From positions 35,453 through 99,452 of the forward strand of contig JAFKHH010000017.1 in assembly GCA_017306865.1 (NCBI GenBank): a stretch of 64,000 bases of DNA, given 5' to 3'. The notes beneath the pieces are model-generated. The model ran no database searches. It saw only the letters and a list, made by a program, of their open reading frames with translations, and was not told where the DNA came from. A program made the position numbers and the translations under genes. Below, piece by piece: positions 8,194 through 61,790 of the stretch. The DNA comes from Filimonas sp. (lineage in GTDB: Bacteria; Bacteroidota; Bacteroidia; Chitinophagales; Chitinophagaceae). The stretch's first letter is position 1. Every line of letters starts with the position of its first letter.

Positions 8194-8230
8194 GTATTTT
8201 TCTATATTTTCGGCGCACCAAACTACTTAC

Positions 8231-8668: not shown

Positions 8669-8735
8669 ATAGCAGTCATTAGGTCAATGGACAATAAGTC
8701 AAAACAATTTAACCATTCAACAATAAAACAATGCC

Positions 8736-16333: not shown

Positions 16334-16338
16334 AAATC

Positions 16339-16370
16339 AATGTACGATGTTAGATGTACGATGTAGTGAT
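16339..16370. repeat. solo copy of repeat family 2 terminal sequence (ATGTACGATGTTAGATGTACGATGT)
   Basis: Same 25-mer as the terminal inverted repeats of the elements at 22862-22977 and 35761-35877. Confidence 0.6.
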
Positions 16371-16471
16371 GTATTGTCATATTGCTGAATGGTTGAATTG
16401 TTGGGGCGTATCCTGCTTTCCCATCGATTCAACAATGTAGCCATATAACAATTCAACAATTTGCAGCTCAT

Positions 16472-17573: not shown

Positions 17574-17690
17574 TTGCTCGCGGAAAACACAGAATGCGCG
17601 GAAAGGATACCAGATATTCCATATCTGCAAGAGCCGGTTATCAATGCGCTTTTAAGTGATATATGGAATATCTTTCACGAACAAGCACAG
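17574..17690. repeat. repeat family 4 (CTCGCGGAAAAC(A/G)CAGAAA...TTCTGCGTTTTC...CTGCGAG palindromic element with a CCAGATATTCCATATCTGCAAGAGCCGG core)
   Basis: Seven copies in the window: 17574, 18453, 19457, 36815, 55769, 60700 and 61759. Confidence 0.7.
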
Positions 17691-18418: not shown

Positions 18419-18452
18419 TTGGTTTAGGTCTTACCAAATGTAGCGTTATTTT

Positions 18453-18590
18453 TCTCCCGGAGAACGCAGAAAACACGAAAATCTGGCCAGATATTCCATA
18501 TTTGCAAGAGCCGGTTATCAATAATCTCTTAAGTGGGATATGAAGATCTTTCACGAAATTTTTCTGCGTATTCCGTGTTTTCTGCGAGCT
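18453..18590. repeat. repeat family 4 copy, upstream of the TPM gene
   Basis: Sequence identity to the copies at 17574 and 19457. Confidence 0.7.
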
Positions 18591-19424: not shown

Positions 19425-19456
19425 TTGGTTTAGGTCTTACCAAATGTAACGTTATT

Positions 19457-19580
19457 TTTCTCCCGGAGAGTGCAGAAAATGCGAAAATCCGGCCAGATAT
19501 TCCATATCTGCAAGACCCGGATATCAACAATCTTTAAAATGAGATATGGAATATCTTTCATGCCCCTGTTTTCTGCGAGC
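19457..19580. repeat. repeat family 4 copy, upstream of the second TPM gene
   Basis: Near-identical to 18453-18590, including the flanking ggtttaggtcttaccaaatgt. Confidence 0.7.
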
Positions 19581-20174: not shown

Positions 20175-20413
20175 TCATTTTTTGTGTGACAAGAAGGATT
20201 TGCACACAGCAATGCAACTTTGCTTCCACAATGCCAGAAATGCTTACCAGTGGTAGTATTTAGAAAATCTTTAACGAGGTAGTCGTAAAATGTGAATCGG
20301 TAATAGAGAATGAGATGCGGGTTGCTACGTTGTTATATGGCTACATTGTTGAATCGATGCGAAAGCTGAATACGTCAAAACAATACAACCATTAACCCAT
20401 AGAACAATTTCCA

Positions 20414-21583: not shown

Positions 21584-21602
21584 AGTTGCAGTATTTCAGG
21601 GG

Positions 21603-21688
21603 GATTTGAAATTTGAGATTTAATATTTGAGATGAATCTACAAGACCGAGGTGTTCATTTGAAATTTCAAATCTCAAATTTCAAATCC
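21603..21688. repeat. repeat family 1 copy between the two MFS paralogs
   Basis: gatttgaaatttgagatttaatatttgagat ... atttgaaatttcaaatctcaaatttcaaatc. Confidence 0.7.
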
Positions 21689-21691
21689 GTC

Positions 21692-22837: not shown

Positions 22838-22861
22838 TTCTATAATTTATAAATTAAAAAA

Positions 22862-22977
22862 TGTACGATGTTAGATGTACGATGTGTTTGAATTGTTTTA
22901 TTGTTAAATGGTTGAATTGTTTTGACTTATTGACTATTCACCACTCACTTCTACATCGTACATCTAACATCGTACAT
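22862..22977. mobile_element. MITE-like element, 116 bp with perfect 25-bp terminal inverted repeats (family 2)
   Basis: atgtacgatgttagatgtacgatgt ... acatcgtacatctaacatcgtacat. No coding capacity. Confidence 0.65.
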
Positions 22978-27137: not shown

Positions 27138-27165
27138 TTGTTGAATTGACAAATGGTTGAATTGA

Positions 27166-27212
27166 TAAAAAAAGCGTGGTCCACTTTTGAAAAGTGGACC
27201 ACGCTTTTTTTA
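27166..27212 (+). terminator. rho-independent terminator of aspS
   Basis: agcgtggtccactttt / aaaagtggaccacgct with flanking T and A runs. Symmetric, so potentially bidirectional. Confidence 0.75.
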
Positions 27213-27225
27213 TCAATTACTCGCT

Positions 27226-27268
27226 ATATAAACCTATAAGGTTTTGAAAACCTTATAGGTTTTTCTAA
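27226..27268. terminator. second palindromic hairpin (aacctataaggtttt / aaaaccttataggttt), likely terminator for the Crp/Fnr gene
   Basis: Perfect inverted repeat. A related hairpin occurs at 39325-39362. Confidence 0.55.
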
Positions 27269-28845: not shown

Positions 28846-28918
28846 ATAGCAGCATTCCAATTGGTTGGATACTCCATTTGGATTGGAGAGGATGCAGGTT
28901 CGAGTCCTGCCTGCTATA
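28846..28918 (+). tRNA. tRNA-Pro (anticodon TGG)
   Basis: Cloverleaf parsed by hand: acceptor atagcag/ctgctat, anticodon stem ctcca/tggag with loop tttggat, T-arm gcagg-ttcgagt-cctgc. Confidence 0.7.
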
Positions 28919-28923
28919 CAACA

Positions 28924-28995
28924 AGTCTGTTCATCTAATGGTCAGGATATCAAGCTTTCTACTTGAAGATGCCGGTTCGAATCCGGTACAGACTG
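28924..28995 (+). tRNA. tRNA-Glu (anticodon TTC)
   Basis: Acceptor agtctgt/acagact, anticodon stem tcaag/cttga with loop ctttcta, T-arm gccgg-ttcgaat-ccggt. Confidence 0.65.
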
Positions 28996-29043
28996 CAAAA
29001 CATGTTACTGGTTCCCTGCTAACCGGATAAACAGTAACAAACC
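28996..29043 (+). repeat. conserved palindromic inter-tRNA spacer (tgttactgg...ctaaccggataa...cagtaaca). Paralogous spacers at 29267-29317, 29391-29445, 29682-29724 and 29814-29854.
   Basis: Stem tgttactg/cagtaaca. Spacer 5 contains a perfect 20-bp palindrome gttaccagttaactggtaac. Confidence 0.6.
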
Positions 29044-29115
29044 TGGCTTATAGTTTAATGGATAGAACACTTCACTACGGATGAAGGAATACAAGTTCGA
29101 CTCTTGTTAAGCCAA
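29044..29115 (+). tRNA. tRNA-Arg (anticodon ACG)
   Basis: Acceptor tggctta/taagcca, anticodon stem cttca/tgaag with loop ctacgga, T-arm acaag-ttcgact-cttgt. Confidence 0.7.
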
Positions 29116-29116
29116 C

Positions 29117-29189
29117 TATCGGATAGTGCAATTGGTAAGCATTTCAGAATTTGACTCTGAAGGTGTTGGTTCAAGTCCAGCTCCGATAA
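29117..29189 (+). tRNA. tRNA-Gln (anticodon TTG)
   Basis: Acceptor tatcgga/tccgata, anticodon stem tcaga/tctga with loop atttgac, T-arm gttgg-ttcaagt-ccagc. Only 1 nt separates it from the preceding tRNA. Confidence 0.7.
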
Positions 29190-29193
29190 CTAT

Positions 29194-29266
29194 CGACCTG
29201 TAGCTTAATGGTAAGAGCAGGAACCTTATACGTTCAAGGTTAACAGTTCAAATCTGTTCAGGTCGA
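29194..29266 (+). tRNA. tRNA with anticodon TAT (Ile-like, UAU). Assignment is tentative.
   Basis: Acceptor cgacctg/caggtcg, D-stem gctt/gagc, anticodon stem ggaac/gttca (one mismatch) with loop cttatac, T-arm aacag-ttcaaat-ctgtt. Confidence 0.5.
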
Positions 29267-29317
29267 CGTAAACTTTATGTTACTGGCTACTTGCTAACCG
29301 GATAACCGGTAACAAAT

Positions 29318-29390
29318 GTTGGCTTTAGCTTAACTGGTAAAGTGCCACACTGTGAATGTGGAGAACAGGGTTCGAGTCCCGGAGTCAACC
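29318..29390 (+). tRNA. tRNA-His (anticodon GTG)
   Basis: Acceptor gttggct/agtcaac, anticodon stem ccaca/tgtgg with loop ctgtgaa, discriminator C. Position -1 is T, so no G-1 is encoded. Confidence 0.6.
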
Positions 29391-29445
29391 AGCATTAGTT
29401 ACAAGTTACAGGTCACTAGCTAACCGGTTATCCTGTAACAACTAT

Positions 29446-29518
29446 TGGTTCGTAGCTCAATGGCGAGAGTATCCGGCTTTTAACCGGAGGGTTGTGAGTT
29501 CGAGTCTCACCGGGCCAA
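29446..29518 (+). tRNA. tRNA-Lys (anticodon TTT)
   Basis: Acceptor tggttcg/cgggcca (two G-U pairs), anticodon stem tccgg/ccgga with loop cttttaa, T-arm gtgag-ttcgagt-ctcac. Confidence 0.65.
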
Positions 29519-29521
29519 CAG

Positions 29522-29593
29522 GGATGAATAGCTCAGCGGCAGAGCAACGGTTTGTTAAACCGATGGTCGAAAGTTCGAATCTTTCTTCATCCG
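29522..29593 (+). tRNA. tRNA-Asn (anticodon GTT)
   Basis: Acceptor ggatgaa/ttcatcc, D-arm gctc-agcggc-agagc, anticodon loop ttgttaa, T-arm gaaag-ttcgaat-ctttc. Confidence 0.6.
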
Positions 29594-29599
29594 CAATAA

Positions 29600-29681
29600 G
29601 TGAGTGCGCCAACGCGGGAGAGTTGGTCTTGTCTGTAAAACAGGTGCCTTCGGGTTGAATAAGTTCGAATCTTATCACTCA
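29600..29681 (+). tRNA. tRNA-Tyr (anticodon GTA), with long variable arm
   Basis: Acceptor gtgagtg/cactcac, anticodon stem cttgt/acagg with loop ctgtaaa, variable-arm hairpin gcc-ttcg-ggt, T-arm ataag-ttcgaat-cttat. Confidence 0.65.
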
Positions 29682-29724
29682 CACAATACCGGTTTCCAGT
29701 CATATGGTTAACCAGTAATAAAAC

Positions 29725-29813
29725 GGAGAGTTGACAGAGGTGGTAATGTGCGGGTTTGCTACACCCAGGCTATCGCTTAATGCGGTACAAAGGTTCAACT
29801 CCTTTACTCTCCG
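29725..29813 (+). tRNA. tRNA-Ser (anticodon GCT), with long variable arm
   Basis: Acceptor ggagagt/actctcc, anticodon loop ttgctac, T-arm aaagg-ttcaact-ccttt. Length 89 nt. Confidence 0.55.
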
Positions 29814-29854
29814 CGAATAGATGAGACAAGTTACCAGTTAACTGGTAACTACCA

Positions 29855-29927
29855 GGTGTTTTGGCAGAGATGGTCTATGCACCGGACTGAAAATCCGGCA
29901 AAGAAGGTTCGAATCCTTTGGACACCA
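29855..29927 (+). tRNA. tRNA-Phe (anticodon GAA)
   Basis: Acceptor ggtgttt/ggacacc (two G-U pairs), anticodon stem ccgga/tccgg with loop ctgaaaa, T-arm gaagg-ttcgaat-ccttt. Confidence 0.65.
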
Positions 29928-29955
29928 CTATGCAGAATTATAAAACATAAATGCT

Positions 29956-30438
29956 ATGGAACAGCAACAATGGAGAAAACTGAATGGTGAAAGAATTCAC
30001 ATTCCTATTACCGAAGAGATCAGTAATACATTGGCACATGAAATAAGCATGGGCCATTCATTAAAAGTTTGTATAGGCACTGACAGTCAGGTGAAAGGAA
30101 GAGAAACTGAATTTGCAACCGTTATTGTTTTCATCCGCAAAGGCAAAGGAGGTTTTATGTACATACGCAATGAAACCTCTAAACAGAAGATGCACATCAA
30201 ACAAAGGATGTTGATAGAAGTAAGCAAAAGCATAGAGGTATCTTATGCGCTGTGCAACATATTCTCACGCTATGGTGTGGATATGGAGGTGCATGCTGAC
30301 ATCAACACCAACCCCAACTTTAAAAGCAACGATGCGTTGAAAGAGGCTATGGGATTTATTGTGGGAATGGGCTTCGCCTTCAAAGCAAAACCAGAAGCAT
30401 TTGCAAGCTCAAGCTGCGCAAATAAGGTGGTGCAATAG
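29956..30438 (+). CDS. hypothetical protein, possibly RNase H-like fold (YkuK/DUF458-like). Only 28 nt downstream of tRNA-Phe with no terminator between, so probably co-transcribed with the tRNA array.
   Basis: 160-aa ORF. KVCIGTDSQ followed by a beta-hairpin (ETEFATVIVFIRKGKGGFMYI) and a later EVHADIN segment resemble an RNase H-like catalytic core. The family assignment is from memory and is uncertain. Confidence 0.5.
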   Translation: MEQQQWRKLNGERIHIPITEEISNTLAHEISMGHSLKVCIGTDSQVKGRETEFATVIVFIRKGKGGFMYIRNETSKQKMHIKQRMLIEVSKSIEVSYALCNIFSRYGVDMEVHADINTNPNFKSNDALKEAMGFIVGMGFAFKAKPEAFASSSCANKVVQ

Positions 30439-31080: not shown

Positions 31081-31450
31081 CAAAGGAAGAATGGCGTAAA
31101 TGGTAAACGCAAAGCACTTGTAATGCTTCGACTGAAAATCGAAAGAAGTCGTCTCTTCTATAAAAAAGGCACCTAAACCTTAGAGAAAGGGTTGCTTTTT
31201 AGCACAAAGCATATTTCTTAATAGATATTCTATTAACCAATGTGTGGCGTGCAGCTTATTCGCGGCTAGCATATTATCATTCTTGCTAAGCAGTCATTCA
31301 CTTTTCCCTGCCAAGATCAGCAATGATCAAAGTAAGACTAAACTGAATCTCTCAATAGCAACAAACATAATATCCGCAGCGGGTAAGTAAAAAGCAACCC
31401 ACCCTTTAAGCAACCAACAACTATTATAATACAGATGTAAAAACACAACA

Positions 31451-34501: not shown

Positions 34502-35758
34502 ATGCAACCATTAGCAGAGCGTATGCGTCCTACCACGCTGGACGAATTGGTAGGCCAGGAACATTTGACGGGCAAGGGCAGCATACTTCGCAATGCAATT
34601 GACCAGGGTAATATCCCTTCCATGATCTTGTGGGGGCCGCCGGGCGTAGGCAAAACAACTATTGCCAATATTATTGCACATACACTACACACGCCTTTTT
34701 ACCAACTGAGTGCCATTAGCAGCGGCGTGAAGGAGGTGCGTGAGGTGATAGAGATAGCCAAACAACAATCACGCGCTATTTTATTTATAGATGAGATACA
34801 CCGCTTCAACAAAAGCCAGCAGGATGCATTGCTAGGAGCAGTAGAGAAAGGAACCATCACGCTGATAGGCGCTACTACCGAAAATCCATCGTTTGAGGTA
34901 AACGCAGCCTTACTTAGCCGTAGCCAGGTATATGTACTAAAGGCTTTAGCCCCGGAAAATTTAGTACAGTTACTACAGCAGGCAATAGAGAAAGATGAGT
35001 GGTTGCAGCAATTCGATATTGAGCTAAAGGAAACCAGTGCATTGATCAATATTTCCGGTGGTGATGCGAGAAAATTACTGAACTTATTTGAACTGGTGAT
35101 AACAGCAACTGGCACGTCTGAAATAGTGATTACAGATGACCTTGTAATGAATGTTGCACAGAAGCGGATTGCGCTGTATGATAAGCAGGGGGAACAACAT
35201 TATGATATTATTTCTGCATTTATTAAAAGTATGCGCGGCAGCGACCCTAATGGTGCAGTGTATTGGCTGGCAAGAATGATAGAGGGCGGAGAGGATGTAA
35301 AGTTCATTGCGCGCCGTATGCTCATTTTTGCAAGCGAGGACGTAGGCAACGCCAATCCCAATGCTTTGCTACTGGCCAATGCTACATTTGATGCAGTGGC
35401 AAAGATCGGCTACCCGGAGTCGCGCATTATATTATCCCAATGCGCTGTTTATCTTGCCACGAGCATTAAGAGCAATGCCTCGTATGCAGCAATTAATGAA
35501 GCTATTGCTGCTGTCAATAAATTGGGTGACCAGCCTGTGCCTTTACATATCCGCAACGCTCCTACCGGCCTGATGAAAAAGCTGGATTATGGCAAGGGTT
35601 ATAAATATGCACACTCTTTTGAAGGCAATTTTGCAGAACAGGAATACTTACCGGAAAAGCTTTCCGGCACTAAGTTCTACGATCCTGGGCAGAATGCACG
35701 TGAAGATGAGATCAGGAAATTTTTGAAGACGAGATGGAAGGATAAATATGGCTATTAA
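34502..35758 (+). CDS. rarA: replication-associated recombination protein A (AAA+ ATPase, MgsA/RarA)
   Basis: Walker A motif [13 protein letters not shown], plus MgsA C-terminal domains. Confidence 0.9.
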
Positions 35759-35760
35759 TT

Positions 35761-35877
35761 ATGTACGATGTTAGATGTGTGATGTAATGCATTGTTACAG
35801 GTTACCAGCTAGCTAATAACCTGCAACTTTTAATAAACCGCTTTGAATATTTACGTCGTACATCTAACATCTTACAT
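35761..35877. mobile_element. MITE-like element, 117 bp with 25-bp terminal inverted repeats (family 2). The interior carries a gttacagg...cctgcaac motif related to the tRNA-array spacers.
   Basis: atgtacgatgttagatgtgtgatgt ... acgtcgtacatctaacatcttacat. Confidence 0.6.
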
Positions 35878-35917
35878 AAATCTGGCTTCCTTTTTGCCTA
35901 TTCCCACATAAAACCTC

Positions 35918-36814: not shown

Positions 36815-36900
36815 GTATCGCAAAGACCACAAAGAATACGCAGAGGGCGCAAAGAAAAACCATTCATATTACTTCCGCGATTTCCGTGTTTTCCACGAGC
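36815..36900. repeat. repeat family 4 copy (partial)
   Basis: tatcgcaaagaccacaaagaatacgcagagggcgcaaag...ccgcgatttccgtgttttccacgagc, compared with 60700-60812. Confidence 0.55.
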
Positions 36901-36935
36901 AAAACAATTCAACAATTGATCAAGTAAACAATGTA

Positions 36936-37784
36936 TCAATTCGCCACTACACTTTTCCTGTAATCAGAAGGATTTACGCCCTTATGTTTTTTGAACATCC
37001 TGTTCAGGTGGCTTTCATCCGTAAAATTCAGCTCATACGCGATTTCGCTTATGCGCATACTGCTGTGTTGCAGGCGCGTCTCTACCAGTCGCATTTTATA
37101 ATTGGTAATATACTGTTGCAATGTCTCACCGGTATGCTTTTTAAAGTATTCGCTCAGGTAGTTTAGCGAAATGCCAAATGTGTTACAGATTTGCTCTGCT
37201 CGCAACATATCAGGATTATAAATATGCTGATGCAGATAGCTTACCATTTTCAACGCAGTCTCATCTGTTCCTTTCTTCTTCAGCTTGTCAGGCACATTCC
37301 CGGCTATATTACGCGCCACAATAGTCAGCAGTGTATTTACTAACTGCTGTACCAGCTCATTGTGAAAAATAGCCTCATTCTCCTTTTCACGCAAAAGACT
37401 TTCTACAATGGAGTGAACCAATAATTTATCTGAATTGTTCTTCAGGATACAACCAGGTAAATGGCTGGCGTTGTGAAAGATAAATTCAAGCCGTTGTATC
37501 CAGTTGTAATTATCCTTTTCCCTCAGCGATTTCAGATACACATCATGAAAGCGAAGAAAAAAGAAAGAAGTTCTTGCCTCTATCTCGAACGAATGGCAAT
37601 CTTGTGGTGTTAGCAGGAAAAAATGGCCTTTATGGTAATCAAATTTATTCTTGTTAATACATTGCTTGCCTGTACCGTCCATTATATACGCCAGTTCAAA
37701 AAAGTTATGCTGATGTGCGCTGGGACAAGTGTCCGCTTCTTTATATACGATTTCGAACGGCTGATAAAGATTTTGTATGACCAT
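36936..37784 (-). CDS. AraC family transcriptional regulator (cupin-type sensor + HTH)
   Basis: C-terminal AraC HTH (ISEIAYELNFTDESHLNRMFKKHKGVNPSDYR). Confidence 0.85.
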   Translation of the reverse strand: MVIQNLYQPFEIVYKEADTCPSAHQHNFFELAYIMDGTGKQCINKNKFDYHKGHFFLLTPQDCHSFEIEARTSFFFLRFHDVYLKSLREKDNYNWIQRLEFIFHNASHLPGCILKNNSDKLLVHSIVESLLREKENEAIFHNELVQQLVNTLLTIVARNIAGNVPDKLKKKGTDETALKMVSYLHQHIYNPDMLRAEQICNTFGISLNYLSEYFKKHTGETLQQYITNYKMRLVETRLQHSSMRISEIAYELNFTDESHLNRMFKKHKGVNPSDYRKSVVAN

Positions 37785-38824: not shown

Positions 38825-39232
38825 ATGAACCAAAATCAAAAGATCACTGCATTTTTATTAGCAAGGCTGGCTGCTGGCGTTAGCATGCTCGGTCACGGAT
38901 TAGTACGCCTTCCTAAGCTCACAGGCTTTAGCCAATGGATGCAGGATGTATTTAAAGACAGTATGCTCCCGGCGGTATTAGTTACGCCATTCAGTTATGC
39001 GTTGCCCATAATAGAGTTCATTTCCGGCCTGCTGCTCGTGCTTGGCTTATTTACCAGGTTTGCAGCCGTGTTGGGTGCAGCAGCTATGATAGCTTTATTG
39101 TTTGGCTCGTGTATGGTAGAGAAGTGGGATTGGATACCTCCACAACTGATCCATGTTGCTTTCTTTTGTACGCTGATCATTTATGAAAAAGAATACAACA
39201 GCTATGCATTGGACAAAGTAGTGAAGAAATAA
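38825..39232 (+). CDS. DoxX family membrane protein
   Basis: Four TM helices and the DoxX N-terminal signature (ARLAAGVSMLGHGLVRL). Confidence 0.75.
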   Translation: MNQNQKITAFLLARLAAGVSMLGHGLVRLPKLTGFSQWMQDVFKDSMLPAVLVTPFSYALPIIEFISGLLLVLGLFTRFAAVLGAAAMIALLFGSCMVEKWDWIPPQLIHVAFFCTLIIYEKEYNSYALDKVVKK

Positions 39233-39236
39233 TTGG

Positions 39237-39311
39237 AGATTTGAAATTTAAGATTTGAGATGGATTTAAGCGAACGTCGCAATAACCATTTCAAAGCCAA
39301 ATTTCAAATCA
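39237..39311. repeat. repeat family 1 copy
   Basis: gagatttgaaatttaagatttgagatgg ... catttcaaagccaaatttcaaatc. Confidence 0.6.
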
Positions 39312-39489
39312 CAATAAATAGTAAGACCTATAAGGTTTTTTAAACCTTATAGGTCTATGTTGATATTTTCAATCTCAATTATTAAATATTAACCAATTGT
39401 AGAGTGGACCACTTTTAAAGTAAATATTTCTTTAAAAGCTTACTTGCTGAAAGTGGTCCATTCTACAATTAAATCTCAAATCAACATAT

Positions 39490-40086
39490 ATGAAAATAGT
39501 CATCATAGGAGGCACAGGCACCATTGGTAAAAAAGTGAGCGCCTTGCTGGAAAAGGACCATGAAATAATAAGAGCGGGCTCCAAAAGTGGAGATGTGCAG
39601 GTAGACATTACGTCCGAAGCTTCTATTGAAGCATTCTTTAAAAAAACAGGCACATTCGATGCATTGATAAGTACAGTCGGCAATGGTCATTTTGGCCCAT
39701 TGGCAACCACCACTGTGGAAGATTTTAAAAAGGGATTATTAAATAAGTTGTTAGGCCAGGTGAGCCTTGTACTGATCGGGCAGAAATATATTAATCCCAA
39801 GGGTTCGTTTACGCTTACATCCGGTATTCTTTCAGATGATCCTATCCGCAGCGGCACCAACTTAGCTACCATTAATGGTGCTTTGAACTCGTTCGTTTTG
39901 TCTGCAGCTATAGAACTAGAAAACAGTGTGCGTATAAATGTAGTAAGCCCAGGATTGGTGGAAGATTCATTGGACCTGCTTCCTGCATTTCCCGGACATA
40001 TTCCTGTTGCTATGGACAAGGTTGCAAATGCCTATGCAAAGAGCGTATTGGGTGCATTGACAGGACAAGTGATAAAGGTGTATTGA
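39490..40086 (+). CDS. NAD(P)-binding short-chain dehydrogenase-like protein (atypical SDR)
   Basis: KIVIIGGTGTIGKKV Rossmann motif. 198 aa. Confidence 0.7.
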   Translation: MKIVIIGGTGTIGKKVSALLEKDHEIIRAGSKSGDVQVDITSEASIEAFFKKTGTFDALISTVGNGHFGPLATTTVEDFKKGLLNKLLGQVSLVLIGQKYINPKGSFTLTSGILSDDPIRSGTNLATINGALNSFVLSAAIELENSVRINVVSPGLVEDSLDLLPAFPGHIPVAMDKVANAYAKSVLGALTGQVIKVY

Positions 40087-40258
40087 TTTGAAATTTGAGA
40101 TTTATGATTTGAGATTGTTTCTCCCAAGAAACATTTCTCTACATATCAAATAATAACCATAGTGATCATAGTATAGCCATTGTGATCATTGTGGTTTAAC
40201 TGTCTCTCATTTTTTACTCATCTGCCAATTTCAAATATCAAATTTCAAATCTTAATCT
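40085..40258. mobile_element. about 175-bp MITE-like element bounded by family-1 inverted repeats. The interior contains direct repeats atagtgatcat / attgtgatcat.
   Basis: tgatttgaaatttgagatttatgatttgagat ... caatttcaaatatcaaatttcaaatc. Confidence 0.55.
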
Positions 40259-40263
40259 ATCTT

Positions 40264-49317: not shown

Positions 49318-49319
49318 TG

Positions 49320-49870
49320 TTTATCATCCCAGTCTCCGACTGGGATGCCTTGGCTTTTCGACTCCGTCGAATAGATTCTATACTGGCGCAGGCCTCCCGG
49401 CCTGTGTCTGCTTATTACTACAACATAATAACGAAAAGCCTACTGCCTGCAGTAAGATGATTAGTGACAACAAAGCACAGGCCGGGAGGCCTGCGCCAGT
49501 ATAAGCCCCGGCGTGTGTCTTCACGCGCCGGTTGGTAGCTGGTTCGTGGGGACACGAACCAGGGCGAAAAGTCCTAGAGGGACGCCAGATTGGTAGTTTA
49601 ATAATTCACACAAGTAGTTGAGCTCCGGAGGAGCGACAGAATGAATCGTTTTGCAAGGGAATAATTCTGTCGCCGCGCTGCGGCTCTGATTGGTGTGGGA
49701 TATATCTTTCTACCATTCTATCGAGCCTCCGGCTCTCTGTCATAGCAAGTACACGCAATATTTTTTGCTGAGATTATATAGCAACGTCTTTCGAACACCT
49801 ATAGCCGGGAGGCCTGCGCCAGTAAAAAAACGATGTGGGTATAAAGTAGGTCAGGAGACCAGAACATGAT
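49320..49870. repeat. structured non-coding region. 26-bp perfect inverted repeat (tactggcgcaggcctcccggcctgtg, 49381-49406 and 49477-49502) with a third copy at 49800-49826, plus several additional hairpins.
   Basis: Seen directly in sequence. No ORFs. GC-rich relative to its surroundings. Confidence 0.6.
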
Positions 49871-49875
49871 TGCAT

Positions 49876-49910
49876 ATAAATAAAAAAGCCTGCTTAAGCA
49901 GGCTTATAAC
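49876..49910. terminator. bidirectional terminator hairpin (aaaaaagcctgcttaagcaggcttat) downstream of mqo
   Basis: Perfect palindrome flanked by an A-run on one side and a T-rich stretch on the other. Confidence 0.7.
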
Positions 49911-49947
49911 AATTTAACAATGTAACTATTGAACAATGTATCTCTCA

Positions 49948-51432
49948 CTATTTTATTCCCAGCACGTCACTAGACCATTTGCGCATGTCGCGGCATAGTT
50001 CTGCTTCAGACGCGAGTGACTTACCATAAGAAGGGATCATTTGTTGTAATCTTACTTTCCACCCTGCTGCTTCTTTTTTGAAGCAACGCTCTACGAGGCC
50101 AAGCATAATAGCAACTGCGGTAGAGGCTCCTGGTGATGCGCCCAGCAATGCTGCGATAGAGCCATCTGCTGCGCTTACTACTTCGGTACCAAACTCCAAT
50201 ACGCCACCTTCTTCTTCATCTTTCTTGATCACCTGTACACGTTGCCCTGCTATTTCCAGCTCCCAGTCTTCCATTTTCGCATTCGGCATAAACTCTCTTA
50301 GTGCTTCCAGCCTGTCTTCAGGAGATTGGCGAACCTGGTTGATGAGGTATTTTGTAAGTGGAATGTTATTGTAACCTGCTGCCATCATAGGACGGATGTT
50401 GCTCACTTTTACAGAGCGGAACAGATCGAGATAAGAACCGTTTTTCAGAAACTTAGTAGAGAAGCCTGCATACGGCCCAAACAACAATGCTTTCTGTCCG
50501 TTGATCACGCGTGTATCCAGGTGAGGCACAGACATTGGCGGCGCGCCTACAGAGGCTTTGCCATATACTTTTGCATTGTGCTTTTCTATAATGTCGGGGT
50601 TAGTACATTTAAGCCACTGACCACTCACAGGGAAACCACCAAACCCTTTTCCTTCCGGTATATCTGATTTAAGCAGCAATGGCAATGAACCACCACCAGC
50701 TCCTATGAATACAAACTTTGTATTGACAATACGTTTCTCCCCGGTCGCCATGTCTTTCACCTTCAGGTCCCACGTACCATCATCTTCACGGTCTATGTCG
50801 CGCACTTCATGGTTAAAGTACATGGAAACGCCGTCTTGTTTTTTCAGGTAGTTAAACATACTGCGTGTAAGCGCACCGAAGTTTACATCGGTTCCAGTTT
50901 CCATACGTGTAGCAGCCAGCTTCTGATCACCTGTGCGTCCTTCCATTACAACCGGCATCCACTCTGACAATTTTGTATTGTCTTCCGAATATTCCATACC
51001 CTCGAAAAGATGACTTTTTGTAAGTGCATCGTGCCTTTTCTTCAGGTAAGAAACATTATCATCACCCCACACAAAACTCATGTGTGGAATGCTGCGTATA
51101 AATGATTGTGGATTATCTAAGATGCGTTGCTGTACAAGATATGCCCAGAACTGCCTCGACAGATCGAATGATTCTGCAATCTTGATGGCCTTGCTAATAT
51201 CTACCGAGCCGTTCTTCTCAGGTGTGTAGTTAAGTTCACAAAAAGCGGCGTGACCTGTGCCGGCATTGTTCCATGCATCGGAACTTTCTGCTGCCGCTAC
51301 ATCCAGCCTTTCAAAAACTTCAATTGTCCAATCTGGTTGCAACTGTTTTAAAAGTACGCCTAACGTTGCGCTCATAATGCCTGCCCCTATCAGTACCACA
51401 TCCGGCCCTTTCTTAATATCACTAGTGCTCAT
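49948..51432 (-). CDS. mqo: malate:quinone oxidoreductase
   Basis: N-terminus [44 protein letters not shown] and a 494-aa length match Mqo. Confidence 0.9.
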
Positions 51433-55768: not shown

Positions 55769-55850
55769 TTGCTCGCGGAAAACGCAGAAACCGCGGAATT
55801 AGTTTCTGCGTTTTCCGTGTTTTCTGCGAGAGAAATATCGCAAAGAATGC
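55769..55850. repeat. repeat family 4 copy immediately upstream of the esterase start
   Basis: ttgctcgcggaaaacgcagaaaccgcggaatt agtttctgcgttttccgtgttttctgcgag. Confidence 0.7.
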
Positions 55851-55887
55851 GGATTAACAATTCAACCATTAAACAATTCAACAATCC

Positions 55888-58461
55888 TCAAATTTTCAAA
55901 TTCTCTTTCTTCCCCACTAAGCTCACCACATACGCCACTACCACACAAATTACAATCGCAAATACAGGATATAAAAAGAAACTTACGTTGGTTGCGGATT
56001 GTATGAAGTAAAGGCTAATTGCGCTGACAAAAAATCCTGTAAGCACACCTACACTGTTTATGCGGGGAAAGAAGATGCCCGCAACAAACATTCCTGCAAG
56101 GCAACCACCAAACAACCCGATTATTTTCAGATACTGATCCCAGATAGAAGCATTGCTTAGATACACCAGGTAGATGGCGATGCAGCATCCCAGCAAGCCA
56201 AGCACAAAAGTTGTCCATCGCGCAAAACGGAACCGCTGCTGATCGGTGCTTTGTGGCTTTACTGATTGATAAAAATCTGTAGTCACCACCGTTGCTATGG
56301 AGTTCATGCTGGAACTGATCGTAGACATAGTAGCTGCGAATAACCCGGCAATGACCAGCCCGGCTAACCCTGCGGGCAACTGCTGTGAAATGAACCAGGG
56401 AAAAATATCATCCGTATGCCCATGCGGATCAAGTTGCGCGGGATTGTGCCTGAAGTACACCCACAAGGCTGTGCCTACGCTAAAGAAGATGAGTGAGGCT
56501 GGTATAACCAATATTGCATTTGTATAAATGGATTGTCTTGCTTCTTTTTCTGTAGCTGTTGTAAGGTAACGTTGTACTACTACCTGGTCTGAAGAATAGG
56601 TTACGAGCTGGGTAAGAAACCCGCCAACAAACACAACCCACAACACCGGCTGTGTAAAACTCCATCCGAGTGTAGCCACACGCAATTTATCATGCGACAC
56701 GGCTTCTGAGAAAAGTGTACCCCAGCCGCCATTAATGGAGTGCGCAATAAAGAACAGGCTCAGCAATGCACCACCCAGCAATACCCCTACCTGCATTACT
56801 TCTGTCCAGATCACGGCTTCTATACCACCGGACACGCTATACGCTGTAGTAATTAAACTAGTTCCTATAATGCAGACAAATATATTGATACCGGTAACTG
56901 TACTTAGTACCAATGCAGGTAAATAAATAACAATACCCAGGCGGCTAACCTGGAACAATACAAAATTCACGCTGCCCAATAATTTCACTTTCGCATTGAA
57001 ACGTATATGTAAGTATTCGTAAACGCTGGTAAGCTTTAACTTCCTGAAGTAGGGCAGGTAAAAATAAACGATGATAGGCGCGACTGCAACGATCATCATA
57101 TTGCTTAAAAAATAAACCCAATTGGTAGCATACGCTTTTGCAGGAATAGCAATGAAGGTTAGCGCGCTAAGCTTGGAACCGAAAATACTTAAACCCGCAG
57201 CCCACCACGGTATCTTGCCACCACCCAAAAAGAAATCGCTTGTTGTACTTTTCATTTTGCGCGACACATACACACTAATACTTACGAGTAATACAAAGTA
57301 GAGTGCAAGCACAGACCAGTCAAGCCATTTGAATGCGCCTCCCGGGTGTACAGGTGTAGCCATTAGCACACGCGGGGTACGTGTTGCGGGCCTTGCTTCG
57401 CCTGAAGGAATTACTACATTACCATTCCATACGACTAGTGGTGTGGTGACGGGGGACCAGGTACTTGCAACAGGATTATCTGCGGCATCGCTTTTCCTGT
57501 CTGTAAATACACGCCCCATATCCGCCCATGATTCAGTAATGGTATTGAATGCATAGATCGTAGCAGAAAAACCGGGATGACTATTCTTTAAAGAATCATT
57601 TTGCAAAAAATATTGCCCGTTGTCTCCACCGAAAATGAGCAACTGCGATTGCCCTGCATTGTACGCAGGTGTAGGGGCAGCCGTTACTGGTTGCGGCAGA
57701 TCCGGCAGCCTGCTCCAACCAGTAACAGGAGAATATTTGTAAGCATCTTTTAAATATTCCCGTTGTATTTTCCCCTGTGCATCTGTGTGTAGATGCGCAC
57801 CGCTGAATAAATAAAAATTACCATCCTGCACGCCTGTAATGCTCAGCATACGTGATGGCCCGGGCCATGATGGCAGTGTATTCCAGGCACGTGTGACTTT
57901 CGGCGTAATAAGATTGAGCGATAAAAAATAATTATGTGCAGTATCTGTTGCAGACTGTACGCCTCCCGCTATGTATAATGTATTGCCTGCAATAGCACCG
58001 GACGCATTTGCTAAAGGAAATGGCAGTTCGGGCAATTCTTCTGTTGTGATTTTCCCTTGCTGATAGCGAAGTATAAAAGCAGCGCTATAATATTTTTCCG
58101 CATCGTTGCCGCCAATACAGATTACGCCATCTTGCCAGGTAAGCGATATACCATAAGCCAGTGGATGTGGCAACATACCAGCTTGTTTCCACTGTGCCTG
58201 TGCATTTTCCAATACATATATGTCACTATAGTATGTTTTAGTGCCGCCTGTCCATGGCGCACCGGCAGGAAAGTTGGCGCCTCCGGCAAAAAGCAATGCA
58301 CTATTGCTCACACCGGCAAATCCACCGGCGAACCCAACATTGCCAGGTAGTGGTGGCAGTTGCGTCCATTTAAAATATTGCGGAAGGGAGTCGTTGGCAA
58401 ATGTGGTATTTGCTGCAACAAGTGTGTATAAGGTAATGAGGAAAAACAAATACTTTTTCAA
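55888..58461 (-). CDS. fusion protein: N-terminal NanM-like (Kelch-repeat) N-acetylneuraminate mutarotase plus C-terminal sodium:solute symporter (SSS family, sialic acid transporter-like)
   Basis: Signal peptide and Kelch-type repeats (LLFAGG, ICIGG, LYIAGG, YLFSG, LLIFGG) for about 390 aa, then 13-14 TM helices with SSS-type motifs. Confidence 0.75.
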   Translation of the reverse strand: MKKYLFFLITLYTLVAANTTFANDSLPQYFKWTQLPPLPGNVGFAGGFAGVSNSALLFAGGANFPAGAPWTGGTKTYYSDIYVLENAQAQWKQAGMLPHPLAYGISLTWQDGVICIGGNDAEKYYSAAFILRYQQGKITTEELPELPFPLANASGAIAGNTLYIAGGVQSATDTAHNYFLSLNLITPKVTRAWNTLPSWPGPSRMLSITGVQDGNFYLFSGAHLHTDAQGKIQREYLKDAYKYSPVTGWSRLPDLPQPVTAAPTPAYNAGQSQLLIFGGDNGQYFLQNDSLKNSHPGFSATIYAFNTITESWADMGRVFTDRKSDAADNPVASTWSPVTTPLVVWNGNVVIPSGEARPATRTPRVLMATPVHPGGAFKWLDWSVLALYFVLLVSISVYVSRKMKSTTSDFFLGGGKIPWWAAGLSIFGSKLSALTFIAIPAKAYATNWVYFLSNMMIVAVAPIIVYFYLPYFRKLKLTSVYEYLHIRFNAKVKLLGSVNFVLFQVSRLGIVIYLPALVLSTVTGINIFVCIIGTSLITTAYSVSGGIEAVIWTEVMQVGVLLGGALLSLFFIAHSINGGWGTLFSEAVSHDKLRVATLGWSFTQPVLWVVFVGGFLTQLVTYSSDQVVVQRYLTTATEKEARQSIYTNAILVIPASLIFFSVGTALWVYFRHNPAQLDPHGHTDDIFPWFISQQLPAGLAGLVIAGLFAATMSTISSSMNSIATVVTTDFYQSVKPQSTDQQRFRFARWTTFVLGLLGCCIAIYLVYLSNASIWDQYLKIIGLFGGCLAGMFVAGIFFPRINSVGVLTGFFVSAISLYFIQSATNVSFFLYPVFAIVICVVVAYVVSLVGKKENLKI

Positions 58462-58470
58462 GCTAAAACT

Positions 58471-59418
58471 TTAGTGCGTTTGAAGAGTGGTTTTCTTTAT
58501 CTCATGCCTGCATTTATCTACTATACTAAAGAAGTGAACCTGCTCAAGCATACTTTGTAATTTATTCGAGTCCGCCTCACTCAGGCTTTGCAACGGCAGG
58601 CGACATGCGCCAAGATCAAACCCGATCATTTTCATTATTGCGCGTTGCGCAGGTATGGGCGAGAACTTTACGAGACACCGTACCATTTCTACAGAAGCTA
58701 ACTGCATCTTTCTTGCTTCTTCATGTTCATCATTATTATAATGCGCTATTACCTGCTGGTATAATGGTGCGGCGAAGGTATAGGTACTGCCGATAGCGCC
58801 TTTTGCGCCTACAGCCAATGCGCTTAACAACAGCTCGTCATAACCAAAGAGAATATCGTACTTACCGTTTTTGTAATTAAGACATGCCTGGTATTCATGA
58901 ATAGTAGCGGCGGTATATTTAATACCCGCCAGGTTAGGTATTTTCTCTTCAGCCAATTGCAGAAACTCTACCATATCCATAGCCACATTTGTTAGCGCCG
59001 GAATGTGATAATAGTAAAAAGGCATAGACGGCGCAGCCGATGCAATTTGTGCAATACTATCTACGAGGTTCTGCACAGATGATGGCTTAAAGTAAAATGC
59101 AGCAACAGAGGAAATAGCATCTGCACCAATTCTTACCGCATGTGCGGCAAGCCGTTGAGACTCGTGTATAGAAGTATGCCCTACATGTACAAATACAAGC
59201 AATCTTTTATTTGCTGCTTTTACATAGGCTTCTGCTACCGTCATTCTTTCTTCCACAGTCAGGTTCGGCCCTTCACCATTGGTGCCACAGATAAAAACGC
59301 CTGCCAGTTTATCTTCCACTAGCTTGTTTACAATACCGGGTATTGCATCCAGGTCCAGCGAACCATCTTTTTTAAACGCGGCGAACGTAGCCGCAACTAA
59401 TCCTTCAATCTTTATCAT
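58471..59418 (-). CDS. nanA: N-acetylneuraminate lyase (DHDPS/NAL family)
   Basis: GVFICGTNGEGPNLTVEER schiff-base-enzyme N-terminal motif. Located in the sialic-acid locus. Confidence 0.75.
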   Translation of the reverse strand: MIKIEGLVAATFAAFKKDGSLDLDAIPGIVNKLVEDKLAGVFICGTNGEGPNLTVEERMTVAEAYVKAANKRLLVFVHVGHTSIHESQRLAAHAVRIGADAISSVAAFYFKPSSVQNLVDSIAQIASAAPSMPFYYYHIPALTNVAMDMVEFLQLAEEKIPNLAGIKYTAATIHEYQACLNYKNGKYDILFGYDELLLSALAVGAKGAIGSTYTFAAPLYQQVIAHYNNDEHEEARKMQLASVEMVRCLVKFSPIPAQRAIMKMIGFDLGACRLPLQSLSEADSNKLQSMLEQVHFFSIVDKCRHEIKKTTLQTH

Positions 59419-59550
59419 TGTTCACTCTTTATATTTAAAATCCTGTAAGCATTAAAATTGTTATATGGTTCTATTGTTTAATTGTTATGATCGCAACAGA
59501 AGAAAAACCATTTAACAATTTGACCATGCAGCCATGTATTGCTTCGTGAT

Positions 59551-60687
59551 TTATTTAAATAAATTCTCCTTCCTAAATCTTTTCAACATCAACGTATAAT
59601 TCCAGTCTTTGCCGTCGTTGGTTTCGTAGAGGCAATAGATCGTACCATCGGGCGCAACAGTTACATCAGAGTACCCGGCGGCTCCGGCAGCTAATACTTT
59701 CTGCACAGGCCATGTTTTACCTTCGTCATAACTAAGTTTTGCCACAAGGTTCCTGCGCGGATTTTTAGGAATATCCCTGCTATCAGGATTGATGAAGAGT
59801 AATGCGTTCTTATTATTTTTCAGCGGCACTTTAATAATGCTTGCCATACAAACCGGGTCAAACAATGCAGTATCATACACGGGCTTCGACCAGTTGCTAA
59901 TGCCATCGGGACTGTACAGTATGCCACGCCTATGTACTGGTGAACCTGTACGTATATTCAGCATAACACTACCGTCGTTTAATTGTACCGCCATGTTCTC
60001 ATTCGGATTTTTAAACTCGGGTGTGTTGTCTGCTGCGATCACACCGTTGTTCCATGTCTTTCCATTGTCATCACTATAGATGGTTGCTATAGCGCTGGGG
60101 CCGTGGCTACGACGCGGCTGTAACTTATCCGAATCAGCTAACCAAACAGAAGCAAGCAGTCGGCCGTTTTTCAATTGTATAGCATGCCCCGGGCCTGTTG
60201 CTAACACCTTCCAATTATAGGTGGGTTTGAATCTGTCAAACGTCGCAGTAATGTCTTCTGCTACAGACCACGTAAGTCCGTCATCTGTCGATTGTGTGTG
60301 ATAGGCGCGCGCATAATCCCGCTGATAGAGCAAATGGATTGTACCATCTGCCGCAACTACCGGCGCAGGGTTACCGGCAGGCTCGCCTGCTTTCTTTGCT
60401 GCAATAATTTGATATTCGCCCCATGTCTTACCACCATCTTCACTTCTTCGTAGCAAGAGGTTCATATCGCCCCAATCGCTGGCATTGTTGATACGGCCTT
60501 CGCAGAAGGCAAGCAATGTCCCTTTCTTTGAGATAACCAATGCGGGTATGCGCATAGAGGCATATTCACCGGCTTTAGGTGCAAAGACAATAGTGCTGTC
60601 AACATTTGTTACTGTTGCAGACTGCTTTGTTGTTTTACAACCGAATAGAGAAAGAATAATTCCTATAAATATTATTTGCTTCATCAT
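59551..60687 (-). CDS. exo-alpha-sialidase (BNR/Asp-box repeats), lipoprotein
   Basis: Lipobox LFGCK. Asp-boxes SEDGGKTW, STDDGLTW, SDDNGKTW, YDEGKTW. Start trimmed to the MMKQ at 60687. Confidence 0.8.
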   Translation of the reverse strand: MMKQIIFIGIILSLFGCKTTKQSATVTNVDSTIVFAPKAGEYASMRIPALVISKKGTLLAFCEGRINNASDWGDMNLLLRRSEDGGKTWGEYQIIAAKKAGEPAGNPAPVVAADGTIHLLYQRDYARAYHTQSTDDGLTWSVAEDITATFDRFKPTYNWKVLATGPGHAIQLKNGRLLASVWLADSDKLQPRRSHGPSAIATIYSDDNGKTWNNGVIAADNTPEFKNPNENMAVQLNDGSVMLNIRTGSPVHRRGILYSPDGISNWSKPVYDTALFDPVCMASIIKVPLKNNKNALLFINPDSRDIPKNPRRNLVAKLSYDEGKTWPVQKVLAAGAAGYSDVTVAPDGTIYCLYETNDGKDWNYTLMLKRFRKENLFK

Positions 60688-60699
60688 ATTATATGTTTC

Positions 60700-60812
60700 A
60701 CGCAAAGGTGGAAAGTATCGCAAAGGCCGCAAAGAAAACTGGGAAATGGCGCTCGCGGAAAGCGCGAAAAACGCGGAATTATTTTTCTGCGTATTCTGTG
60801 TTTTCAGCGAGC
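60700..60812. repeat. repeat family 4 copy immediately upstream of the sialidase start
   Basis: tatcgcaaaggccgcaaag...gctcgcggaaagcgcgaaaaacgcggaatt atttttctgcgtattctgtgttttcagcgagc. Confidence 0.7.
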
Positions 60813-61744
60813 ATATTTTTTCCAAAAAATTCCGGTAATATTTCTCTTGCCTTATGCCTCACACCTTCTATATTCTCTTCACCAATGCTTTTATACGGCC
60901 ATCTTAATCGCGGTGAGACAGTTGCCCATCCGCCTACGGCAGCCATAAATTTATCTACAGCCTGGTTCGCATATCCCTGCTGTACTATGTAAGGTACGAT
61001 ACATGCATGCATGAATTGCTGAATGCGGCTTTGCAGTTCCAACGCTTTTTCCATGTCGCATTGCATCAGATCATACCAGCGCTGTGCGGCCAGCGGATGT
61101 AAGCAGGCAACATTGGAATAGGCACCATGTGCCCCATACTGATACCCTGTTGCTAAATGATGCCCTGGTATAAACACAGACAATTGCGAAAACAAAGGTT
61201 GCATATCTTCATACCATTGCTGATCGCCTCCTGCTACTTTGCACCCAACCAGTTTTACATGTTTCATTATTTCACAAAAATCTTCCGGCTGCAATTTTAC
61301 TTTTGCATGTGGTGGATTGTACAAGACCAATCCTATATCTCCTGCCGCATCCTGTATGCGTTGCAGGTAATCTATGATCTCCGGCATGGTTGGCGGAAAC
61401 CAATCGGGCAGAATTATTTGCATGGCACCTGGCTCCAATTGTTTTATCCTGCGCACGCGCTCCAGGGACACAATGGGACTGGTGTGGTTGCATCCAACTT
61501 GAAAAGGCATATTTGCCGCATTACACTTTTCTGCAAGTAACTGGCTTACGTGATCAAACTCCTGTTCTGTCTGGTTGTAAAACTCCCCTGCTGTTCCGTT
61601 GGAGTAAATACCATTTACCTTATACGCAATCAGTATGTCGATCTCATCGGACAATGCTTTGTAATCGATGCTATCATTTGGATTAATGGGCAACAGGAGC
61701 GTTGCCCAATTTCCATATATCTGGCTGCTTGTAAGCGATTTCAT
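60779..61744 (-). CDS. second DHDPS-family (dihydrodipicolinate synthase / NAL-like) aldolase. The predicted C-terminus runs into the repeat element, so the true stop may lie further upstream.
   Basis: YGNWATLLLPINPNDSIDYKALSDEIDILIAYKVNGIYSNGTAGEF is the DHDPS-family N-terminal signature. Confidence 0.65.
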   Translation of the reverse strand: MKSLTSSQIYGNWATLLLPINPNDSIDYKALSDEIDILIAYKVNGIYSNGTAGEFYNQTEQEFDHVSQLLAEKCNAANMPFQVGCNHTSPIVSLERVRRIKQLEPGAMQIILPDWFPPTMPEIIDYLQRIQDAAGDIGLVLYNPPHAKVKLQPEDFCEIMKHVKLVGCKVAGGDQQWYEDMQPLFSQLSVFIPGHHLATGYQYGAHGAYSNVACLHPLAAQRWYDLMQCDMEKALELQSRIQQFMHACIVPYIVQQGYANQAVDKFMAAVGGWATVSPRLRWPYKSIGEENIEGVRHKAREILPEFFGKNMLAENTEYAEK

Positions 61745-61758
61745 ATTTATAGTTTATA

Positions 61759-61790
61759 TCTCGCGGATGCCGCAGAAAACGCAGCACTTT
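61759..61790. repeat. repeat family 4, partial copy
   Basis: tctcgcggatgccgcagaaaacgcagc. Confidence 0.5.

Follow-up and report, generated by a model that had tools for sequence, protein, structure and literature searches.

The window analysed here, a continuous stretch of 64 kb from a Filimonas chromosome (a metagenome-assembled genome of the Chitinophagaceae), contains housekeeping and sugar-utilisation genes as judged by Pfam, among them a sialic-acid locus with NANM/SSF, SASA esterase, BNR sialidase and DHDPS-like genes, and two TPM paralogues (TPM1 and TPM2). Between these genes lies a short dispersed palindromic element, which the original prediction took for a promoter or operator module, or else for a MITE (a transposable element of the miniature, inverted-repeat kind) that brings a promoter with it rather than a neutral repeat. 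The seven predicted copies were all recovered in place, where shuffled sequences lead one to expect none. They are given below together with the leader shared by the two TPM genes; the E values were obtained with R1, a profile built only from arms of the element that flank genes of the GxxExxY family at other loci (L149, L152, L172, L175 and L185).

Copy 1, 17577..17680: left arm (17577-17604) and nested inner palindrome core (17610-17677), with no recognisable right arm; it starts 8 nt past the stop of a Macro-domain gene convergent with TPM1; R1 E = 3.9e-5.
TPM leader, 18419..18453, minus strand: 35 nt, a near-exact match to 19425-19456, with TACATTTG 24 nt ahead of the ATG; the palindrome does not include this leader, and the other copies lack it.
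Copy 2, 18454..18589: degenerate left arm (18454-18481), core (18487-18554) and right arm (18561-18588), between the TPM2 stop (18594) and the TPM1 start (18418); right arm R1 E = 2.5e-6.
Copy 3, 19457..19580: degenerate left arm, core (19493-19560) and truncated right arm (19568-19579), upstream of the TPM2 start (19424); recognised by a repeat-family match, by alignment and by weak R1 matches.
Copy 4, 36815..36900: good right-type arm (36872-36899) after a degenerate, purine-rich, arm-like stretch, TATCGCAAAGACCACAAAGAATACGCAGAGGGCGCAAAGAA, between convergent DUF4197 and AraC-family genes; R1 E = 1e-4.
Copy 5, 55772..55830: complete 59-nt hairpin with 27-nt arms and a loop of 4-5 nt, 58 nt past the NANM/SSF stop and 34 nt ahead of the SASA esterase ATG; R1 E = 4e-8 and 2.3e-7; it is followed by an arm-like fragment (55833-55856) and then by a different repeat family.
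Copy 6, 60700..60811: arm-like purine-rich stretch (60700-60745) and complete 60-nt hairpin (60752-60811), upstream of the BNR sialidase start; R1 E = 1.7e-6 and 1.4e-4.
Copy 7, 61760..61790: solo left arm, which takes up the spacer of 46 nt that separates the sialidase stop (61791) from the DHDPS-like start (61744); R1 E = 0.003.

Reading across the seven sites, the arm consists of a 9-nt unit, NNCGCRGAA, repeated three times in tandem, and an inverted pair of arms gives either a hairpin of 59-60 nt or a longer form with a nested core. Written out, the window arm is CTCGCRGAA-NNCRCRGAA-NNCGCRGAA, its units following the CRCRGA(A/T) core of the family. The arm sequence CTCGCGGAAAACGCAGAAA occurs nine times in the window with at most three mismatches (17577, 18454, 36881(-), 55772, 55803/55812(-), 60752, 60793(-) and 61760) and not once in 100 dinucleotide-preserving shuffles. 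The additional core that had been noticed in three copies is equally real: CCAGATATTCCATATCTGCAAGAGCCGG, 28 nt long, is found at 17610, 18487 and 19493 with none in as many shuffles, and matched nothing else in any sequence searched. The element as a whole measures 59-135 nt, its 27-nt arms being terminal inverted repeats, and is bounded by the defined termini CTCGCRGAA...TTCYGCGAG. By form, two of the copies are clean hairpins, three carry a second palindrome nested between the arms (17577, 18454 and 19457), one is a solo arm and one is degenerate on one side; by arms, the inverted pair is complete in copies 2, 5 and 6 and partial in copy 3, copies 1 and 7 hold solo arms, and copy 4 is degenerate. 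The copy at 19457 has degenerate arms, yet some 105 nt of it align with copies 1 and 2. The complete hairpins are predicted to fold stably (55772-55830, -36.9 kcal/mol, z = -7.3; 60752-60811, -35.0 kcal/mol, z = -5.8). With the Rfam covariance models the window yielded only tRNAs at the gathering threshold, and the elements gave no match even at E <= 1. By eye, no match to the integron attC consensus (R''/R') was seen and no integrase lies nearby; resemblances to DnaA boxes, parS and NBS sites, also judged by eye, were superficial.

The arms led to a gene. When the open reading frames (ORFs) within 3 kb of arm matches were compared all-against-all and clustered, a single small protein recurred between inverted arms, a cluster of ABC ATPases having been discarded as a trivial, ubiquitous family. 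It was found at six loci, namely L149, L152 and L175 from soil Bacteroidota, L060, L089 from Kiritimatiellia and L110 from Armatimonadota, the last with a 5'-truncated copy of the gene between intact arms. All six proteins belong to TIGR04256, GxxExxY (E values of 1e-16 to 1e-42), which corresponds to Pfam PF13366, PDDEXK_3. Against ascertainment bias the test was also run in reverse, with eight GxxExxY homologues taken from two protein searches and looked up regardless of their flanks: four from Bacteroidota (P0165, P0199, P0176 and P0211) and one each from Deltaproteobacteria (P0304), Actomonas aquatica (Verrucomicrobiota, P0337), Planctomycetota (P0312) and Hydrogenedentes (P0300). Inverted arrays of three 9-nt units flank all eight genes, in five phyla, for example CTCGCAGAAGGCGCGGAAGACGCGGAA / TTCCGCGGCTTCCGCGCCTTCTGCGAG, CTCACAGATACCTCAGATTAACACAGAA / TTCTGTGGCAATCTGTGGTATCCGTGAG and AACCACGAAACACACGAAATACACGAAAGGG / CCCTTTCGTGTATTTCGTGTGTTTCGTGGTT. 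An inverted match of >= 17/22 within 130 nt of the gene ends was found for 7/8 GxxExxY genes as against 3/62 control genes (Fisher p = 7.7e-7), and the three scoring controls are themselves flanked by palindromic elements; the eighth gene has inverted arms about 120 nt downstream, in three tandem gene-less hairpins. A protein-based viral scan added one more gene with arms of another type (L178) and three distant phage-borne homologues without arms.

Gene and arms are closely fitted to each other. Often the upstream arm runs right up to the ATG, three lineages have their stop codon within the downstream arm (CGTAG), and the arm sequence varies with the gene lineage (CGCRGAA, CACAGAT, CCAGATGAA, CACGAAA). 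Seven of the eight gene-first cassettes are co-oriented with the upstream host gene, and at L202 a cassette separates the ATPase gene of an ABC transporter from the permease gene. Conversely, the R1 profile detects eight arms in the window, with E values of 4e-8 to 3e-3, and four more degenerate segments weakly. Gene-less copies outnumber gene-bearing ones, by 7 to 0 in the window, and only some 10% of the metagenome loci found through their arms have the gene; at L190 and L170 gene-less hairpins have multiplied locally in tandem. Literature searches with the arm strings and on Bacteroidales repeats, GxxExxY, PDDEXK_3 and the 23S intervening sequence (IVS) protein found no paper linking the repeats to the gene, a link that appears undescribed in the searchable literature; a paper on intrastrand triplexes and the Minerva preprint proved to be unrelated.

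The arms themselves are widespread. A scan for a one-arm 21-nt pattern in one genome per species gave more than 114 stretches, and the taxa among the matches listed comprise Bacteroidota, Lentisphaeria, Kiritimatiellia, Planctomycetota, Acidobacteriota, Caulobacterales, Anaerolineae and several Methanosarcina; at least 27 of the 118 matches listed have an inverted arm within 160 nt, part of the rest being chance or coding sequence. With a stricter, Bacteroidota-type 27-nt pattern, 42 metagenome stretches were obtained, many of them complete hairpins with CTCGCRGAA...TTCYGCGAG termini. The loops of these hairpins range from 4 to 60 nt and have no sequence in common while the arms are alike, so it is the arm sequence that is conserved and not pairing alone. 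Viral contigs scanned with one 18-nt arm returned 17 matches, all coding or chance, and no hairpin.

Many hairpins with near-identical arms (AACCRCGGAAAACRCGGAAAGCGCGGAA and its inverse) were seen in Methanosarcina and other Methanosarcinaceae (L031, L037, L049, L050, L065, L067, L070, L072, L092, L115, L117, L124 and L132). On several Bacteroidales contigs (L169/L177, L166, L174 and L142/L145/L160), different arm types of the CRCRGA design, such as CACGGATAGCACAGATAGCACAGAT, CACACAGAAATCACAGAAATC, CACGGATGACACGGATAC and CACGAAAAACACGAAT, are strung together, small palindromes such as GCAAGCTAAAGCTTG being interspersed among them, and modules of this kind seem to be commonly combined into complex mosaics.

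The gene context of the window copies is the one originally described. Five sit between co-directional genes of the minus strand, upstream of TPM1, TPM2, the SASA esterase, the BNR sialidase and the DHDPS-like gene, and two lie between convergent 3' ends (Macro/TPM1 and DUF4197/AraC); none of the seven is in a divergent spacer. At the five upstream copies 16-57 nt separate the nearest arm from the next ATG, and the element lies 1-58 nt downstream of the stop codon of the preceding gene, one copy overlapping that stop, so that the spacers are made up almost wholly of inserted palindromes. The elements also enter reading frames, as had been noted: the DHDPS-like ORF (60779-61744) reads into the hairpin of copy 6, and its last 11 codons and stop are element sequence, GKNMLAENTEYAEK (ending MLAENTEYAEK), which probably means that the insertion replaced the native C-terminus or stop of this ORF. 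In the copy at 55769 a spurious ORF begins with LLAENAETAE.

At the TPM genes, 18401-18453 and 19407-19459 share the near-identical 35-nt leader and first codons, contiguous with the element, which suggests a joint transfer of leader and element between the paralogues, by copying or conversion. A recent tandem duplication as the origin of copies 1-3 was rejected because the elements show 72-88% identity, but the TPM1 and TPM2 proteins no more than 33%. The two sialidases are likewise old paralogues (35% identity), as are the two DHDPS-family genes (24%).

Comparison with relatives shows the element present in some and missing in others at one orthologous site. In the window the spacer between the NANM/SSF and SASA genes is 149 nt long, element included. 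In a relative with 87% identity (L135) the orthologous place is occupied by the element, which has the same modules beside it and differs by six transitions and one indel. In another, whose esterase is 77% identical (L133/L134), the DHDPS, BNR, NANM/SSF and SASA genes are tightly packed, the NANM/SSF-SASA spacer is 22 nt and the element is absent; it is therefore dispensable for that gene order, and to judge by this comparison of sequences it is an insertion/deletion polymorphism within the operon and not a required regulatory part.

We propose, with a probability of roughly 0.6, that the elements of the window are gene-less members, non-autonomous or relic and comparable to MITEs or REPINs (see below), of a family of palindromic GxxExxY cassettes. 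The full cassette would consist of a purine-rich arm of 3 x 9 nt, a promoter-less GxxExxY gene of ~125 codons and an inverted arm. Such cassettes are found immediately after a host gene, mostly reading in the direction of that gene, and hence would presumably be expressed by read-through. In this Filimonas chromosome the arms alone would remain, in hairpins of 59-60 nt, singly, or on either side of a nested palindrome. Insertion would have gone into formerly very short spacers of operons and 3' ends, which may be why the elements look as if placed 15-40 nt before start codons. The short hairpins could be deletion relics or copies mobilised in trans by the gene-bearing form; in either case we infer that the short forms derive from that form or are mobilised by it. 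The cassette may be a selfish unit with a nuclease that acts on its own arms, for instance on a cruciform, a hairpin or the 9-nt repeats. The truncated gene of L110 is a decay intermediate. It is tempting to go further and to see here an undescribed class of selfish palindromic cassettes spread across phyla and possibly domains, in which the GxxExxY nuclease recognises its own arms and drives their spread or maintenance much as in REP/RAYT systems, but this larger claim is tentative and we would not bet on it. The window copies themselves are ordinary selfish DNA, and any effects on neighbours, such as an RNA hairpin or the altered C-terminus of the DHDPS-like protein, are most likely incidental.

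Several observations sit uneasily with this proposal. The GxxExxY gene is absent from the 64-kb window by six-frame search, and the loops of the elements, inner core included, show no signal of a GxxExxY remnant even at E <= 100; the window copies are therefore the gene-less form, and inverted arms alone cannot explain so precise a loss of the ORF. Within the 8-kb stretches around the Methanosarcina arm matches the gene was not found either. Some gene-bearing cassettes of different species (L149, L152, L172, L175 and L187) share one site upstream of a fadB-like gene, which indicates long residence or slow turnover rather than frequent movement. Filled and empty (L133) sites are too diverged for the junction to be mapped, so that a target-site duplication is not definable; the flanks merely prolong the palindrome, being rich in T on its 5' side and in A on its 3' side. 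Finally, a census of the loci found through their arms, based on crude ORF calls, gave 28 tandem, 3 convergent and 4 divergent arrangements, in which a preference for 5' ends is not separable from one for 3' ends.

That the element is a dispersed promoter or operator module driving or regulating the gene downstream is improbable, even though five of the seven copies stand 16-57 nt before a start codon and the inverted pairs of 3 x 9-nt direct repeats resemble protein-binding sites. The Bacteroidota consensus, taken as a -7 box TAnnTTTG with a -33 TTTG about 19-21 nt upstream, has no match inside the element: at the three sialic-locus copies (5-7) TAnnTTTG is found neither in the palindrome nor between palindrome and ATG (the strict box occurs within 150 nt upstream of 6/51 genes), and a scan with a sigma-70-type consensus stayed at shuffle background. 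The -7-like TACATTTG at -24 of TPM1 and TPM2 does not belong to the palindrome, and no -33 partner accompanies it at 17-23 nt; as these copies are joined to the shared leader that carries it, a promoter may travel with the TPM sub-variant. Convergent 3' ends need no promoter, yet two copies are there, every copy is as near to the stop codon before it as to the start codon after it, the relative keeps its genes 22 nt apart without the element, and in five phyla these arms enclose a gene that looks selfish. What stands of the original prediction is thus its MITE half, borne out by the termini, the dispersal, the presence or absence in relatives and the gene-bearing family, while the promoter it was said to bring finds no support. 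A host-selected RNA hairpin that tunes operon expression, as a partial terminator, a 3'-end stabiliser or an RNase III site, is distinctly unlikely. Its appeal lies in the strong predicted folds (-30 to -37 kcal/mol, z of -6 to -7), in the position of every copy within ~60 nt downstream of a stop codon and in reports of repetitive extragenic palindromic (REP) sequences acting in this way in E. coli. But no U-tract follows the hairpins on the sense strand, as an intrinsic terminator would have it, and a terminator scan gave 6 matches where 6.8 +/- 3.0 were expected, the two inside elements being both antisense. On the sense strand the folds of both complete hairpins of the window are weaker (-29.9 vs -36.9 and -23.2 vs -35.0 kcal/mol). 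In a larger hairpin sample 71% of arm-to-arm mismatches are transitions, with G.U equal to A.C (30:30) overall and 9 vs 15 on the sense strand, so G.U is not in excess there, which argues against selection for an mRNA hairpin. The conservation of arm sequence across phyla beyond what pairing needs, the orthologous operon without the element and the lack of an Rfam family point the same way. A G.U strand asymmetry, considered as a sign of the transcribed strand, was seen in the two complete window hairpins and was gone in the larger sample.

It is also unlikely that the short hairpins are primary, whether self-standing or preferred landing sites, with the GxxExxY genes as guests in their loops and the window copies as empty sites. 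This would fit the great excess of gene-less copies and the loops, variable from 4 to ~60 nt and without common sequence, and insertion sequences (IS) are described as targeting REPs (PMC1525189). Against it, the abutment of arm and ATG and the stop codon held by the downstream arm, in several phyla, make gene and arms one integrated unit; the arm sequence tracks the gene lineage, and L110 has its truncated gene between intact arms. Highly improbable, lastly, is a classical family of REPs or REPINs (hairpins of paired REPs) mobilised by a RAYT (REP-associated tyrosine transposase, of the HUH Y1 type). The element is indeed extragenic, palindromic and multi-copy, with doublet hairpins, and a gene flanked by inverted repeats is given as a hallmark of such systems in PMC3116915 and PMC3333891. 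A REP, however, is an imperfect palindrome of 20-40 nt with a GTAG or CGTC tag at one end (PMC3733652); here the single arm is not palindromic, and the flanks (...TTG|CTCGCGG, ...GCG|CTCGCGG, ...TAT|CTCGCGG) have no GTAG/CGTC tag beside the palindrome. None of the 40 window proteins scanned has a transposase domain in Pfam, Y1 HUH transposase included, and the flanked gene in relatives encodes a PD-(D/E)xK nuclease.

For the gene-less cassettes that we favour, the REP/REPIN elements with their RAYT, whose Y1 HUH transposase gene is flanked by repeats, are nevertheless the closest analogy (PMC3116915 and PMC3333891). As in Pseudomonas and E. coli, short imperfect palindromes are dispersed in spacers, mostly gene-less, with a coding relative between inverted copies, sequence types that follow the gene lineage and local tandem clusters (L190, L170). 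Unlike there, the flanked gene encodes a predicted Cas4/RecB-like PD-(D/E)xK nuclease of ~125 aa instead of an HUH Y1 transposase, is promoter-less and abuts the arms, and the arms are three 9-nt direct repeats, untagged and singly non-palindromic, that in similar form span many phyla. MITEs such as the Correia elements of Neisseria, for which promoter activity has been reported, share the size (60-135 bp here), the terminal inverted repeats, the insertion at gene ends with alteration of a neighbouring ORF's C-terminus, and the insertion polymorphism between relatives. Unlike them, the element has yielded no definable target-site duplication, has no known DDE-transposase parent, is conserved in its arms but not in its interior and lacks a promoter motif; for a parent IS with a transposase sharing the repeats, the only gene-bearing relative found encodes a nuclease-fold protein and no known transposase. 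A small, selfish-looking nuclease gene between host genes, without a promoter of its own and enclosed by a long stem able to occlude its translation start, also recalls free-standing homing-endonuclease genes, such as the T4 seg and mob genes, and the ORFs within 23S rRNA IVS hairpins. In contrast to these, the cassettes have no evident conserved target gene or site, and gene-less copies are numerous. Lastly, the heptamer and other long simple-sequence intergenic repeats of Bacteroidota and Cyanobacteria (PMC4679880) resemble the element in their 7-9-nt tandem units in intergenic DNA, often just 5' of start codons, in a patchy distribution suggesting horizontal transfer and in relatives with shorter, repeat-free spacers, but not in the roughly three units per arm, the inverted pairs forming hairpins or the association with a specific gene.

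The GxxExxY protein, ~125 aa long, models as a minimal Cas4/RecB-like PD-(D/E)xK nuclease with its predicted catalytic motifs intact. A sequence search of the PDB found no solved relative, PADLOC gave only a faint similarity to Cas4 (E ~0.005) and no defence-system family, and PHROGs held no phage family for it. PF13366/TIGR04256 is a large family with no assigned function, for which the constantly associated cognate inverted 9-mer arrays provide a testable candidate substrate of the nuclease. If the selfish-cassette reading is true, it would give GxxExxY/PDDEXK_3 a role and explain common intergenic repeats in Bacteroidota, the Planctomycetota-Verrucomicrobiota-Chlamydiota phyla, Acidobacteriota and perhaps Methanosarcina; should the arms be mobilised by the nuclease, this would be a second, independent invention of the REP/RAYT style with a different enzyme, spread horizontally over at least five phyla. 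In practical terms, Bacteroidota and many other genomes owe spurious ORFs and false C-terminal extensions (MLAENTE...) to these elements, which a model of the arms would allow to be masked, and in the sialic-acid locus they are not to be read as regulators of its genes.

The window is packed with other palindromic repeat families unrelated to the element. A heptamer family (ATTTGAA / ATTTGAG ... TCAAATC) occupies 8109-8203, 21593-21697, 39232-39310 and 40086-40262; at one metagenome locus (L147) a heptamer-family hairpin encloses another of the CGCAGAAAA type, so both families occur together in other Bacteroidota. The ATGTACGATGTTAGATGTACGATGT family and its inverse (16332-16366, 22853-22977 and 35753-35879) form stems of 25-29 bp enclosing other repeats, with arms that are 100% complementary at 22861-22885 / 22953-22977. 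The 7-8-mers of the AATTGTTGAATGG type (TTGAATTG / TTGAATGG) lie at 8682-8732, 16373-16487, 20294-20408, 22887-22942, 27132-27168, 36893-36938, 49908-49957, 55846-55885 and 59456-59555; they often adjoin copies of the element studied here, for instance between the NANM/SSF stop and copy 5, and are kept at the orthologous site of L135. Perfect or near-perfect palindromes, AAAAAGCGTGGTCCACTTTT / AAAAGTGGACCACGCTTTTT and ACCTATAAGGTTTT..AACCTTATAGGT, are found at 27160-27218, 27228-27267, 39319-39358 and 39395-39470, that is, as an adjacent hairpin pair at two distant places. A convergent spacer of 630 nt (49318-49947), with a predicted fold of -255 kcal/mol, contains an inverted repeat of 42 nt (TATACTGGCGCAGGCCTCCCGGCCTGTG...), whose arm recurs a third time at 49804-49834.

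Elsewhere in the window, ten tRNA genes are packed into ~1.1 kb (28846-29928: Pro, Glu, Arg, Gln, Ile(TAT), His, Lys, Asn, Ser and Phe), the TAT anticodon of tRNA-Ile being unusual. This array is preceded by a gene-free stretch of 976 nt and followed by an RNaseH_like (PF04308) gene at 29956-30438, and an additional weak tRNA match is located at 31085-31160.

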